Virus record (IMG/VR): IMGVR_UViG_2703718785_000025
DNA: 10,444 nt
DNA from: a virus
Taxonomy: Duplodnaviria; Heunggongvirae; Uroviricota; Caudoviricetes
Direction: 5' to 3' (one strand)
Under the pieces are notes generated by a model that saw nothing but the letters and a program-made list of their open reading frames with translations, was not told where the DNA came from and did no database searches. Of the stretch, positions 4,181-8,984 are shown piece after piece. Position numbers and translations under genes: made by a program. Each line of letters begins with the position of its first letter. Within the stretch, counting starts at the first letter, position 1.

Positions 4181-4583
4181 CTTTAAAAAGGGCGGCAGAG
4201 CAGCCACGGAGTAAAACTGATACCGCCAAACGTCACCAGAAAATTGATAACAGAGGGCGTTGCAGCGGGGTTGTCACTTAAGCGTATGGTCAACCTGACA
4301 ACCCGGTGTCCTCAACTGGGGAAGGAATAACCCCGCCATACTTACCGCCGCGCCATTTCGCGGATTGCCACAACCGGAAGCGCACGGTCGACGAAAATTT
4401 AACGACAGGCTATCTATGAACCAGCTACCTCGCCGTGCGCTTTCGCGTTATGGTCTGACTTTTCAGGGAAATATCCTTTCAGTAAACTGTCAGTGCCGGA
4501 TGCTCACCCGTGTCCGGCGCACGCACTCCACCTCACCCGTGGAGAACTCCTTAATTACCAACCTTAGCTTCGTTGGTTAGCTA

Positions 4584-5095: not shown

Positions 5096-5473
5096 AGGCG
5101 CATACCGCTTAGTTACCGCTCTGATAATTCTTACCTGTCCGGCAATGGCGCTGATATCAATATAAAGCGCCATCGCTGTTTCTTTGCTGATCCCTGGATG
5201 CCTTCCATTCTGATGTTTGACTTCGCCCACTGAGAAATCCTCTGTTTCCCCTTAACGCCGGGGTAGCGGAACAAAAAACCTGCTGCATAGTTAAACGTAA
5301 TCCCCGCCGTCATGTTCATACGCCTCAGGCTGGCTACTTAACCCCTGACCACTGCCGGGTAACTCGAAGTATTGCCCTGCGTTCTGTGGGGCGGGGTGGG
5401 TTTATGGATACAATTTACAAATTAAAATTTAACTGGTCAACATGTTTATTATTAAATTTGTAATTGCGGGCTG

Positions 5474-5508: not shown

Positions 5509-5811
5509 ATGAAGATTATCTCAGTTAAAACACTCAGGGATTTTTGGGCGGAGAATCCTGATGCAGAACAACCGCTAAGGGCATGGGTGGATGAGGCGGC
5601 AAAAGCTGACTGGAAAAGCCCAGCAGACATTAAGGCACAATACCGAACGGCCAGTATATTGAAAAACCGGCGCGTGGTATTCAACATAAAAGGTAATCAT
5701 TACCGTTTAATTGTTGCAATTGCGTATCAGCGAGGATGGGTATTTGTTAAATTCATCGGAAACCACAAGGAATACGATGCTATTGATGCTGATACCATCG
5801 AACTGGAGTAA
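5509..5811 (+). CDS. higB: Type II toxin, HigB family (RelE/ParE superfamily)
   Basis: 100-aa product MKIISVKTLRDFWAENP...FNIKGNHYRLIVAIAY...GNHKEYDAID, resembling E. coli HigB as recalled from memory. Toxin is upstream of antitoxin, the reversed order typical of HigBA. The track start at 5464 adds 15 residues with no support. Confidence 0.85.
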   Translation: MKIISVKTLRDFWAENPDAEQPLRAWVDEAAKADWKSPADIKAQYRTASILKNRRVVFNIKGNHYRLIVAIAYQRGWVFVKFIGNHKEYDAIDADTIELE

Positions 5812-5813
5812 GC

Positions 5814-6173
5814 ATGAACATCAAACCTATTCGTACAGAGCAAGATTATGAAGCCGCGTTGCGTGCTGTTGAACCCATGTTCGACAATGAGCCCGAAATT
5901 GACACGCCTGAGGGGGATTTTTTTGAGGTGATGTGTTTGCTAATAGAGGAATATGAAAAAAAACATTATCCCATTGAGCCACCATCCCCAATTGAAGCTA
6001 TAAGATTTCGCATGGAACAGCAGGGGCTGACTGTGAAAGATTTGGAACCCGCAATTGGGAAAAAAAATCGGGTTTATGAGGTGTTGAATGGTACCAGAAG
6101 CCTTACGTTACCAATGATTCGCCGTCTTCATAATCAATTTGGTATCCCCCTGGAAAGCCTGGTTGGATTATAA
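5814..6173 (+). CDS. higA: Type II antitoxin, HigA family (XRE-type HTH at the C-terminus)
   Basis: 119 aa; ATG is 2 nt after the higB stop with GGAG 5 nt upstream. C-terminal HTH region LTVKDLEPAIGKKNRVYEVLNGTRSLTLPMIRRLHNQFGIP resembles HigA. Confidence 0.85.
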   Translation: MNIKPIRTEQDYEAALRAVEPMFDNEPEIDTPEGDFFEVMCLLIEEYEKKHYPIEPPSPIEAIRFRMEQQGLTVKDLEPAIGKKNRVYEVLNGTRSLTLPMIRRLHNQFGIPLESLVGL

Positions 6174-6667: not shown

Positions 6668-6706
6668 TTACAAATAGAAGTTGAAATTTAAATTTAAATT
6701 TGTAAT
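6668..6706. promoter_or_regulatory. Operator-like inverted repeat in the divergent repressor/Cro-like promoter region
   Basis: ATTACAAAT (6668..6676) and ATTTGTAAT (6698..6706) form a perfect 9-bp inverted repeat 21 bp apart. Three tandem AAATTT units lie between them (6685..6702). Rightward -35-like TTGAAA at 6681..6686 and -10-like AATTAT at 6704..6709. Confidence 0.5.
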
Positions 6707-6738
6707 TATCGGTGTCATCGTAAAGTTCGGAGGGAAAC

Positions 6739-6999: not shown

Positions 7000-7433
7000 A
7001 AATCAAGCATGAGCACATCCGCATGGCGATGAATGCGTGGCTGCTTTATCCGAGGGTAGGGCGCAAAAAAATCGCTGATGATATAGCGACAGCATATTTT
7101 GAGCTTGAAATGACTTATCCACCAATGCATGACACCTCTACGACAGAGGGTATTGGATTGAACATACAAAATATTTTTCGCTGGCTTGAAAAGGATACGC
7201 CTGATGCTGTTGAAAAAATTCAGGCACTAATTCCAGCTATCCTGACTGTTCTTCCGCGTGAACTGCGTTATCACCTCAGTATTTTTGACACTGTTGAGCG
7301 CCGTGCATTACTGGCGGCCCAGGAAGCGTTGAGCACGGCAATTGATGCGCATGATGATGCAGTCCAGGCAGTTTACCGGAAAGCGTATTTCAGCGACGGC
7401 GGGTCATCCGGCGAGTCTGTTGTGGTGCATTGA
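6996..7433 (+). CDS. ydaT: YdaT-like protein (Rac prophage YdaT family, CII-analog or toxin)
   Basis: 145 aa: MKIKHEHI...KIQALIPAILTVLPRELRYHLSIFDTVERRALLAAQEALSTAIDAHDDAVQAVYRKA... matches my recollection of E. coli YdaT. GGGAG 7 nt upstream of the ATG. Confidence 0.8.
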   Translation: MKIKHEHIRMAMNAWLLYPRVGRKKIADDIATAYFELEMTYPPMHDTSTTEGIGLNIQNIFRWLEKDTPDAVEKIQALIPAILTVLPRELRYHLSIFDTVERRALLAAQEALSTAIDAHDDAVQAVYRKAYFSDGGSSGESVVVH

Positions 7434-7519
7434 TATTTATGCCAGACCCCTGCTGATTCTGTTGATTGGGGAATCACAGAATATCACCAGAGGATGGTTC
7501 GTCACAAGATGAGGCAATT

Positions 7520-8530
7520 ATGGCCGCATTACCATACATGCAACTGTACATAGCTGATTACCTGGCTGACACCATGCATTTGTCCGCAGAGGAGCACGGT
7601 GCGTATTTGTTGCTGATGTTCAATTACTGGCAAACAGGGAAACCAATACCTAAAAACAGGCTGGCAAAAATTTCCCGTCTGACTAACGAGCGATGGGCTG
7701 ATGTGGAACCATCCTTGCGGGAGTTTTTTTGCGATAACAGCGATGAATGGGTGCATCTTCGGATTGAGGAAGATCTGGCATCAGTCAGGGAAAAATTGAC
7801 CAAAAAATCAGCCGCCGGAAAAGCATCTGTTCAGGCCAGAAGAAGCAGAAAGGAAGCATATGTTCAAACAAAACAAGAGAGAGATTTAACAGGTGTTCAA
7901 ACAAATGTTGGTGTTGTGTTTGAACATGACGCAAACACAAAAGCAACTAATAAAGATACAGATCTAAAAGAATTAAACCCCACACATAACGTGCGTGAAC
8001 GCGAGAGTATTCCGACCAGTGAGTCGCATGGTGCGCCGTTGCAGACAGCCGAACCTGAATACCTGGACGGCCTGAGCGAACCGATCGGGAAATTTTCGAT
8101 GACTACTGTCTGGCAGCCGTCGCCGGATTTTCGACAACGGGCAGCAGTGTGGGGTATGGCTCTGCCTGAGCCGGAATTTACACCTGCTGAGCTTGCCGCA
8201 TTCCGGGATTACTGGATGGCGGAGGGGAAGGTTTTCACGCAGGTTCAGTGGGAGCAGAAATTTGCCCGCCACGTGCAGCACGTCAGGGCACAGGTAAAAC
8301 CAGTCAGCAAGGGGGTAAGCCATGCAGCATCAGGTGGCACGGCATCACGGGCAGTTCAGGAAATCCGGGCAGCACGCGAACAGTGGGAACGTGAAAACGG
8401 ATTTATCAGCAACGGAAACGGCCTGGAAGCTGTGGGAGCTTATGGGGGAGGTGTATTCGAACCGCTGGACTCAGAAGAACGGGGCCGCACCTTCGAAGCT
8501 CTGGATTGCCCAGATTGGTGCGATGACTGA
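7520..8530 (+). CDS. Replication initiation protein, O-like: YdaU/DUF1376 N-terminal domain fused to a DnaT-like C-terminal domain
   Basis: ATG at 7520 with GAGG 5 nt upstream; the track start at 7466 is TTG. N-terminus MAALPYMQLYIADYLADTMHLSAEEHGAYLLLMFNYW fits DUF1376. C-terminal ...VWQPSPDFRQRAAVWGMALPEPEFTPAELAAFRDYWMAEGKVFTQVQWEQKFARH... resembles E. coli DnaT (recalled). Confidence 0.8.
   Translation: MAALPYMQLYIADYLADTMHLSAEEHGAYLLLMFNYWQTGKPIPKNRLAKISRLTNERWADVEPSLREFFCDNSDEWVHLRIEEDLASVREKLTKKSAAGKASVQARRSRKEAYVQTKQERDLTGVQTNVGVVFEHDANTKATNKDTDLKELNPTHNVRERESIPTSESHGAPLQTAEPEYLDGLSEPIGKFSMTTVWQPSPDFRQRAAVWGMALPEPEFTPAELAAFRDYWMAEGKVFTQVQWEQKFARHVQHVRAQVKPVSKGVSHAASGGTASRAVQEIRAAREQWERENGFISNGNGLEAVGAYGGGVFEPLDSEERGRTFEALDCPDWCDD
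7861..7926. repeat. Iteron-like repeats inside the O-like gene (candidate replication origin)
   Basis: TGTTCAAACAAA at 7861..7872 and 7894..7905, plus an inverted copy TGTTTGAACA at 7917..7926. An AT-rich stretch follows (about 7940..7980). Confidence 0.45.
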
Positions 8531-8984
8531 ACAGCAAATCCGTCTGGTCTGCCGTCAGTGCATGGACCGCTGCCGGGCGGGTGAAACGTGGCCCCCGGAC
8601 CTGGCTGAGTTTGTTGCGCTGATTTCGGAGAGTGGGGCAAATCCATTTGGTCTTACGGTGGATGCCGTGATGGAAGAGTACCGGCGCTGGCGCAATGAAT
8701 CCTGGCGATACGACGGGAGTGATAAATACCCGTGGCCACAGCCTGTGCTGTACCACATCTGCCTCGAAATGCGTACCAGAGGGATTGAGCGCCAGATGAC
8801 GCAGGGTGAGTTAAAACTACTTGCAGAACGGCAACTGACGAAATGGGCAAAGCATGTTGGTAACGGGATGAGTGTTCCGCCAGTGCGACGACAACTGGAA
8901 GGGGCGAAACACCCGCAAGGGCCAACGCCAATTGAGCGGCTGAAACAGGAATACGAACGCCGGAAGGCAGCTGGTTTTATTTGA
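8322..8984 (+). CDS. Replication protein P-like (helicase loader); start uncertain
   Basis: 220-aa frame with AGGGGG 6 nt upstream of the ATG at 8322. Segments align by eye to lambda P (ETWPPDLAEFVAL, YPWPQPVLYHICLEMR and TQGELKLLAERQ against PFLPSPGQFVAWC, YPWKSNAHYWLVTNLYQNMR and TDAELRRKAADE). With this start it overlaps the O-like gene by 209 nt out of frame. Alternative in-frame starts are at 8442 and 8523. Confidence 0.65.
   Translation: MQHQVARHHGQFRKSGQHANSGNVKTDLSATETAWKLWELMGEVYSNRWTQKNGAAPSKLWIAQIGAMTEQQIRLVCRQCMDRCRAGETWPPDLAEFVALISESGANPFGLTVDAVMEEYRRWRNESWRYDGSDKYPWPQPVLYHICLEMRTRGIERQMTQGELKLLAERQLTKWAKHVGNGMSVPPVRRQLEGAKHPQGPTPIERLKQEYERRKAAGFI

Follow-up and report, generated by a model that had tools for sequence, protein, structure and literature searches.

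An initiator gene with a candidate replication origin in its linker

The window analyzed here is the whole 10,444-nucleotide stretch of IMG/VR virus record IMGVR_UViG_2703718785_000025, assigned to the Caudoviricetes. Positions 7400 to 8600 are 100% identical to a lambdoid prophage of Escherichia coli O26:H11 strain 11368 and to many other enterohemorrhagic E. coli (EHEC) genomes. The gene at 7520-8530 sits where phage lambda has O, in a cluster downstream of genes at the cro and cII positions. A preliminary description of this DNA had called the gene O-like and had proposed that a replication origin is embedded in it. The gene, its domains, and the gene that follows it are as follows.

7520..8530, plus strand: initiator gene encoding 336 amino acids, with an N-terminal DUF1376 domain, a linker carrying the candidate origin, and a C-terminal DnaT-like domain
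7532..7780, plus strand: DUF1376-domain coding region (Pfam), a presumed iteron-binding winged helix
8069..8293, plus strand: DnaT-like C-terminal domain coding region (PDB sequence matches), a fold that binds single-stranded DNA
8523..8984, plus strand: P-like helicase loader gene (Pfam Phage_lambda_P, phrog_109), whose start overlaps the initiator stop codon

The Pfam family DUF1376 (PF07120, the YdaU family) matched residues 5 to 87 of the initiator with an E value of 8.8e-26 and 90.6 bits, against a gathering cutoff of 30.1. A PDB sequence search found no solved DUF1376 structure. In an AlphaFold2 model of residues 1 to 112, with a predicted local distance difference test (pLDDT) score of 84, a helix-turn-helix and a short beta wing are followed by a long helix; fold matches were modest, and we describe the domain as a predicted winged helix. 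At the other end of the protein, Pfam DnaT matched residues 192 to 258 (E value, 2.8e-17), and residues 184 to 258 matched PDB entries 6aep, 4ou6, and 9zbt, which represent the single-stranded-DNA-binding C-terminal domain of DnaT, with E values of about 1e-20. Only this C-terminal domain matches: the DnaT equivalog model NCBIfam NF002770 gave 94.7 bits, below its cutoff of 201. The labels in PHROGs are "primosomal protein" and "replication initiation protein."

A BLASTP comparison with lambda O gave an E value of 3.2, that is, no similarity, and Pfam returned DUF1376 and DnaT only, with no lambda-O-type replication-protein family. With no detectable similarity to lambda O, the initiator resembles O in its position and layout and not through common ancestry; the earlier label holds for position and architecture and has to be given up for homology. 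The downstream gene product matched Phage_lambda_P with an E value of 1.4e-14 and phrog_109, "P-like helicase loader," with an E value of 5e-53; it is without the N-terminal third of the P profile.

Three exact repeats and an unstable tract occupy the linker

The linker contains three copies of a unit of 10 base pairs (bp), which we refer to as iterons, followed by an AT-rich tract.

7861..7870, plus strand: iteron 1, exact copy of TGTTCAAACA
7894..7903, plus strand: iteron 2, exact copy of TGTTCAAACA
7917..7926, minus strand: iteron 3, exact copy of TGTTCAAACA and inverted partner of iteron 2
7927..7947, plus strand: phased half-site-like motifs GCAAAC and GCAAC, which prolong the AAC lattice of the iterons, with a period of approximately 11 bp, in the direction of the AT tract
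7939..7978, no strand: AT-rich low-stability tract, a presumed DNA unwinding element on the basis of its stability and its position, which matches the (GATACA)n tracts of relatives; it is also a mosaic joint

The repeats proved to be as first described, with two direct copies and one inverted copy, and these three are the only exact copies of TGTTCAAACA in the window. Iterons 1 and 2 share 12 identical nucleotides (TGTTCAAACAAA) and lie 33 bp apart, iterons 2 and 3 are perfect inverted copies of each other over 10 bp, separated by 13 nucleotides, and iteron 1 pairs with iteron 3 over 16 nucleotides at 94%. No 10-mer other than TGTTCAAACA has three copies inside 80 bp anywhere in the window, and a comparable 10-mer cluster arose in none of 2,000 first-order Markov simulations, which keep dinucleotide-level composition only. 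The sole segment of the window that scores slightly above the candidate origin for repeat pairs is 2141-2240, a T/G-rich, low-complexity segment with many short repeats in a minus-strand open reading frame (ORF) at 1308-2741, in the exonuclease gene region. Read off the sequence, AAC trinucleotides end at 7869, 7890, 7902, 7925, 7936, and 7947, an approximately 11-bp lattice. No DnaA boxes were found near the repeats, and no iteron-like site was found in the CI/cro intergenic region. There is one weak additional site.

7617..7626, plus strand: weak extra iteron-like site TGTTCAATTA with two mismatches, within the DUF1376-domain coding region; its function is uncertain

The iterons span +341 to +406 from the initiator start codon and encode residues 114 to 136, which places them between the DUF1376 and DnaT-like domains, in the interdomain linker named in the preliminary description. 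The reiterated peptide reported there was also read, since the direct copies encode VQTK and VQTN. This raises the possibility that the repeats are a mere by-product of a duplicated or low-complexity peptide linker (VQTK/VQTN, rich in DT) with no function in the DNA, a view favored by the direct copies lying in the same frame 33 bp apart. The third copy speaks against it, being inverted and encoding VFEH.

The AT-rich stretch after the repeats was likewise borne out. GC content is 0.32 to 0.37 across 7850-7970, compared with about 0.57 downstream, and by nearest-neighbor energy 7939-7978 (+420 to +458 from the start codon) is the third least stable 40-mer of the window. The only less stable segments are the intergenic promoter regions 6669-6708 and 5420-5459. 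Within the tract, the hexamers ATAAAG, ATACAG, and ATCTAA follow each other as a degenerate array at 7950-7967, with a GATC site at 7961-7964. No other part of the window has a comparable repeat cluster beside an unstable tract inside the replication module. A resemblance of 7952-7964 (minus strand) to the 13-mers of oriC was rejected, as it is at chance level (5 matches versus 4.8 expected). Just past the tract, at 7979-7999 on the minus strand, is a weak terminator-like hairpin, a consensus match only and within chance expectation.

The iterons are conserved islands that travel with the N-terminal domain

The first 470 nucleotides of the gene were compared among 63 E. coli-type loci, which reduced to 32 distinct sequences. 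Conservation was measured per site as the fraction of these sequences differing from the window.

Iteron 1: 2.2% difference per site, the least conserved iteron
Iteron 2: 0.3% difference per site
Iteron 3: 0.9% difference per site
13-bp spacer between iterons 2 and 3 (7904-7916): 26% difference per site
21 nucleotides after iteron 3: 16% difference per site
Third codon positions of the DUF1376 domain: 7% difference per site

Judged by these rates, the iterons are conserved islands in a fast-evolving linker, a pattern similar to that of a footprint and a contrast that rests on few independent events because the E. coli sequences are phylogenetically close. A by-product of the peptide would not be expected to look this way, as the iterons are far more conserved than the adjacent codons of the same linker. 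Rac-SA53 and some other variants have a decayed iteron 1, which points to the inverted pair, iterons 2 and 3, as the conserved core. In two loci from E. coli and Shigella flexneri (L087 and L090), ydaU diverges at about +400, right after an iteron 3 that reads GTGTTCGAACA, a perfect palindrome; this suggests a truncated or rearranged module.

Two natural exchanges separate the repeats from the rest of the region. In the first, YdaU of the K-12 Rac prophage is 94% identical to the window protein over residues 1 to 148 and unrelated beyond. Its gene retains, in the linker (NC_000913.3, about 1421511-1421620), all three copies of TGTTCAAACA and the AT tract (ATAAAG, ATACAG, ATAAAG, ATCTAA, and AAACAG in succession) and is followed by the DnaC-like loader gene ydaV, not by a P-like gene. 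The cro-like proteins of the window and K-12 Rac are only 42% identical. The second exchange is seen in the PPompW prophages, whose initiators keep the C-terminal half (66% identity from residue 100) but begin with a different helix-turn-helix domain. At the equivalent position, their linkers lack TGTTCAAACA and have instead five or six ACACCCAAA-type repeats, as in PPompW_EH2246 (L003, 2469-2665). These swaps indicate that the repeats follow the N-terminal domain and not the C terminus, the loader, or the immunity genes. The same pattern of covariation is known for lambdoid O proteins and their iterons. Conservation in related prophages, which had been named as a check on the proposal, is thus seen both in the near invariance of iterons 2 and 3 and in the retention of all three copies by K-12 Rac. 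By megablast, the N-terminal and origin module is present in 880 of 5,426 complete E. coli genomes, including EHEC O26 and O103.

The exchanges also bear on the AT tract itself. K-12-type matches end at 7963 (residue 148), within the tract, and similarity to PPompW starts at GATCTAAA. A joint at the edge of the candidate origin would explain why initiator genes recombine at this point. It could be argued from the exact stop of K-12 Rac similarity at 7963 and the PPompW start at GATCTAAA that the tract is mainly a recombination joint for the exchange of initiator domains and not an unwinding element. We consider this extremely unlikely: a joint at the origin edge is also seen in lambda and is expected from modular exchange, and a joint leaves the iterons, their 11-bp phasing, and the hexamer tracts found across families (see below) unexplained. 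The two roles are in any case not exclusive.

Helically phased repeats follow the domain in distant DUF1376 genes

More distant relatives were collected through alignment of the N-terminal domain. The scans gave 80 viral and 80 genomic loci with 100% to 39% identity, which were the best 80 per scan and not random samples, and contained 129 nonredundant DUF1376 loci from many phyla. Most of these loci have short repeats in both orientations just past the domain-coding part. The repeat is CGTTCAACG/CGTTGAAC in other enterics, Pseudomonas, Serratia, Rahnella, and Azotobacter, with the GTTCAA core seen in the window; it is GCGAACGCT in Bosea, AGCAATGCT in Methylorubrum and relatives, and CAACTAA in Azospirillum. 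Across the 129 loci, GTTCAA/TTGAAC occurs at 9.3 per kilobase (kb) in a 150-bp interval of the linker versus 0.72 per kb elsewhere. Repeat density was also profiled without reference to a motif, as the density of 8-mer pairs with one mismatch allowed and simple tandem repeats masked; the densest 100-bp segment of the 5.3-kb locus lay in the linker in 27 of 75 loci, compared with about 2 expected.

The spacing of these repeats recurs across genera. In the Pseudomonas phage UFJF_PfDIW6, repeats are spaced by 11, 11, and 11 bp, and an inverted pair, CGTTCAACG and CGTTGAACG, has 13 nucleotides between its arms, which is the geometry of the window. Rahnella shows spacings of 11 and 22 bp, and Methylorubrum shows 11, 11, and 22 bp. 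All repeats are direct in Rahnella and Serratia, and the arrays of Methylorubrum and Azospirillum are direct with an 11-bp period. Across the linkers of 30 representatives, AAC spacings peak at 11 (94 pairs), 22 (51 pairs), and 33 to 34 (60 pairs), and no three-base periodicity of AAC was seen. The reading frame of the core changes as well: E. coli reads it as GTT-CAA, other genera read it as xGT-TCA-Axx, and one Rahnella gene uses both frames.

Inverted copies, frame changes, and an 11-bp period cannot be explained by a peptide repeat but can be explained by helically phased protein-binding sites. That the same DNA core is read in another frame in relatives, and in both frames within one gene, and that 11 is not a multiple of three, in practice excludes a pure peptide-linker origin of the repeats. 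Even with the observation that the hexamer tracts of relatives nearly always read (DT)n, we regard that explanation as very improbable.

A tandem hexamer tract follows the repeats in relatives, at the position of the AT tract of the window. Many gamma- and betaproteobacterial loci have (GATACA)2-8 here, and alphaproteobacterial loci have (CACTCA)n, (CACCTT)n, or a similar unit. Exact period-6 tracts of at least 16 nucleotides lie at +300 to +600 in 30 of the 129 loci, versus 4 in the remaining 618 kb. The window and K-12 tracts are degenerate, AT-enriched versions of such hexamer tracts that contain GATC. In 7 of 10 diverse loci sampled, the DUF1376 gene is followed by a gene for a helicase or for a loader of the DnaC/IstB-like or P-like type. 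A strict correlation between the type of C terminus and the type of loader was considered and rejected, as DnaT-like C termini pair with both DnaC-like and P-like loaders.

Three further observations concern these loci. In many loci from outside E. coli (L004 and L093 to L111), two or three more CGTTGAAC-type sites with 11-bp spacing lie inside the DUF1376-domain coding region, at about +90 and +180 to +210, in the part encoding DVERSLNEFFNE. Hot spots of GTTSAA occur at +90, +180 to +210, and +360 to +390, with 7617-7626 of the window as a weak equivalent. Such intradomain sites may serve the initiator as auxiliary sites, or conserved codons may produce them by coincidence. The DUF1376 genes of L110, L112, L114, L115, and L117 have an additional segment inserted after the domain (approximately +330 to +480) and a repeat of another type, CCGTAGTAGCTACG, in three or four copies; P0040, a related protein fragment, matches Pfam PF10544/PF13455.

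(GATACA)n tracts mark initiator-like genes of several families

A scan of viral contigs for exact (GATACA)x4 found at least 120 loci (L168 to L287); the counts that follow are among the matches listed, which contain 123 tracts. The tract is read as (Asp-Thr)n in 115 of the 123, and 85 tracts lie mid-ORF (residues 90 to 230) in ORFs of 180 to 450 amino acids. The ORFs include members of DUF1376 (13), Phage_rep_org_N (6), DUF6291 (5), and Lin1244_N (2). The majority have no Pfam match and share the consensus WFRLY...W..RQ..SD.S..R. At the loci outside DUF1376, the 100 bp upstream of the tract was the densest-repeat segment in 26 of 89 cases. The repeats before the tract are family specific (for example, CGAACGCA, GTAACG, and GTCACTGTGACG), and an A-rich run follows the tract. 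Among 75 next genes, 21 encode a DnaB-like helicase, 10 a DnaC/IstB-like loader, 6 a G39P-like loader, 4 a Toprim primase, and 1 a P-like protein.

Other hexamers encoding (Asp-Thr)4 were scanned for comparison.

GATACA x4: at least 123 loci; mid-ORF architecture in 85 and N terminus like that of the GATACA set in 90, among the matches listed
GACACC x4: at least 120 loci; mid-ORF architecture in 5 and N terminus like that of the GATACA set in 0, among the matches listed
GATACC x4: 45 loci; mid-ORF architecture in 9 and N terminus like that of the GATACA set in 0
GACACA x4: 66 loci; mid-ORF architecture in 8 and N terminus like that of the GATACA set in 3

Because the synonymous repeats have no such association, the link to initiator genes belongs to the DNA unit and not to the peptide, a further point against a peptide by-product. 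In two genes examined from Azotobacter and Pseudomonas prophages with 60 to 66% GC, the majority of ACA (Thr) codons lie in the tract. Our literature search found no description of the association between (GATACA)n and initiators. An unwinding element, a helicase-loading site, and a priming site are all possible roles for the tract. The window itself holds a degenerate (GATACA)n remnant only, at 7950-7967.

A candidate vegetative origin

Taken together, the results support the proposal of an origin within the O-like gene, as every sequence-level prediction of an intragenic origin holds. On computational evidence, we consider it likely that 7861-7978 is the vegetative replication origin of a Rac-like lambdoid E. 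coli prophage, located inside its own initiator gene. As judged from the sequence, the putative origin is intragenic in the manner of lambda, although its initiator and lambda O are not homologs.

Binding, unwinding, helicase recruitment, and origin firing are steps that we infer by analogy. Transcription from a pR-like promoter would yield the 336-residue initiator, and its DUF1376 winged helix would bind the TGTTCAAACA sites, chiefly the inverted pair at 7894 and 7917, with the copy at 7861 three helical turns upstream. The weaker AAC-ending half-sites on the same helical face, to 7947, would probably be bound too. The resulting nucleoprotein complex could destabilize the adjacent hexamer-derived AT tract at 7939-7978, and the DnaT-like C-terminal domain and the P-like loader would then bring in host DnaB.

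Several observations weigh against this assignment. There are only three 10-bp repeats, compared with four iterons of 18 to 19 bp in lambda, and some variants do without iteron 1. The inverted copies could fold as an RNA hairpin of -21.8 kcal/mol (z = -2.4). The prophage integrase is annotated as frameshifted, a pseudogene, in strain 11368, so the element may be defective even with an intact origin. Finally, polymerase chain reaction (PCR) primers said to "frame oriJ," the origin reported for Rac, map in K-12 ydaV, about 700 bp downstream of the ydaU repeats (PMC3945230).

The hairpin, together with the several helix-turn-helix proteins encoded near the repeats, might suggest a cis-regulatory element in place of an origin: an autoregulatory operator or roadblock, a site for another regulator, or an mRNA hairpin governing translation or stability of the initiator message. 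The potential to form a hairpin is not conserved, however, given the direct repeats of Rahnella, Serratia, Methylorubrum, and Azospirillum. Further, Rfam has no family matching at the repeats, the CI/cro intergenic region holds no similar site, and the repeats track DUF1376 and not the cro-like gene, at 42% identity to K-12, or the downstream genes. We therefore consider a purely regulatory element quite improbable, although a regulatory role could coexist with origin function.

The integrase annotation, the decay of iteron 1, and the primer positions could instead mean that the linker holds a nonfunctional relic and that the true oriJ has another location, perhaps within or close to the loader gene. 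The primer amplicon is 155 bp (L006, 11241-11395, corresponding to NC_000913.3, 1422240-1422394). It encodes the Walker A region, and we found no repeats and no AT-rich tract in it; no other part of the window was found to combine such a cluster with an adjoining unstable tract inside the replication module. In addition, the initiator and loader genes are intact, and the module is widespread in E. coli with iterons 2 and 3 nearly invariant, all of which makes a relic decidedly unlikely. We treat the word "framing" in that report as loose usage. That the repeats of the window correspond to oriJ is something we only infer from sequence, because the sole positional clue, this primer pair, lies in ydaV.

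If the candidate origin is real, it provides a precise and testable origin for Rac-like prophages, and a Pfam domain of unknown function would gain a concrete role as an initiator that binds the origin. It also illustrates that selection on DNA can be the main force shaping a coding linker. A broader reading, to which we give about an even chance, extends beyond this prophage. DUF1376/YdaU would be a large family of winged-helix phage initiators with origins in their own genes, each composed of 11-bp-phased, lineage-specific iterons and then a hexanucleotide microsatellite, (GATACA)n in many lineages and degenerate in the window. (GATACA)n would be a DNA-level origin element common to unrelated initiator families (DUF1376, Phage_rep_org_N, DUF6291, Lin1244_N, and the WFRLY...RQ..SD family), also constrained to encode a tolerated (Asp-Thr)n linker and perhaps serving as an unwinding or helicase-loading site. 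Should the (GATACA)n observation stand, origins in uncultivated phages could be found with a simple sequence marker, and DNA function would be separable from peptide function by experiment.

Gene neighborhood and other features of the window

In RefSeq, the prophage of strain 11368 has the gene order integrase (frameshifted), exonuclease, dicB, ydfC, a HigB/HigA pair, and a CI-like repressor (minus strand), followed by a cro-like regulator, a YdaT-family protein, a "DUF1376 domain-containing protein," "replication protein P," DUF1627, and DUF977. Pfam results for the ORFs of the window agree with these assignments. One promoter-like site lies upstream of the replication genes.

6681..6709, plus strand: promoter-like site at the pR position, preceding the cro-like gene (9 of 12 matches plus a TG extension, from a consensus scan only; weak evidence)

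By analogy with pR, transcription from this weak candidate would run through the candidate origin. The HigB/HigA-type toxin-antitoxin pair between ydfC and the CI-like repressor (L001, 7110-7774) corresponds to window positions of about 5509 to 6173. As in the Qin/Kim prophage, the DicF antisense RNA lies upstream of dicB, here at 4190-4241 on the minus strand (Rfam RF00039, 75 bits). Masked bases (N) fill 2750-2850, within the exonuclease gene region.

Comparison with known systems

Our literature search found nothing on the function of DUF1376 or on the fine structure of oriJ. A paper on the "Eru" replication regions of Shiga toxin (Stx) phages makes no mention of the DUF1376 family, the Jobling letter and a 2025 paper on a Rac transcription factor contain nothing on ydaU or an origin, and no rep_origin feature is annotated in the matching phage or plasmid records.

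Among the closest known systems is K-12 Rac, for which an active origin, oriJ, has been reported (PMC3945230); PMC11014345 cites oriJ plasmids. The window shares with this oriJ carrier the N-terminal domain, the three TGTTCAAACA copies, and the AT tract in ydaU. It differs in what follows, as K-12 has a different C terminus and the DnaC-like YdaV, whereas the window has the DnaT-like domain and the P-like protein. The C-terminal domain of the initiator matches the single-stranded-DNA-binding domain of E. coli DnaT, but the N-terminal half is unrelated, and the protein described here would act as a phage initiator and not in replication restart. The winged-helix Rep initiators of iteron plasmids (RepA/RepE/pi type) were also considered, where the basis of comparison would be a winged-helix DNA-binding fold.

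A similar plan is found outside the lambdoid phages. In SPP1, oriL lies inside gene 38, so that the origin is in the initiator gene, with repeats by an AT-rich tract and with a helicase loader or helicase gene after it. The N-terminal families and repeat sequences of such replisome organizers differ from those of the DUF1376 system. The Phage_rep_org_N, Lin1244_N, and DUF6291 proteins show the same mid-gene layout of repeats and then (GATACA)n.

The preliminary description had likened the locus to lambda, with its ori in O. The annotated lambda record places the start of O at 38686 and its four iterons at 39034-39118, that is, at +348 to +432, compared with +341 to +406 here. Unlike lambda, the window has three sites, one of them inverted, and its initiator has a DnaT-like C terminus and no similarity to O. 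The number of iterons itself varies among lambdoid phages, from four in lambda to six in Stx phages (PMC7466680). The parallel does not extend to homology with O. It stands for the arrangement: in both cases the iterons lie inside the linker of the initiator gene at a similar offset, an AT-rich tract comes after them, and the gene for a P-type loader is next, overlapping the initiator stop codon.

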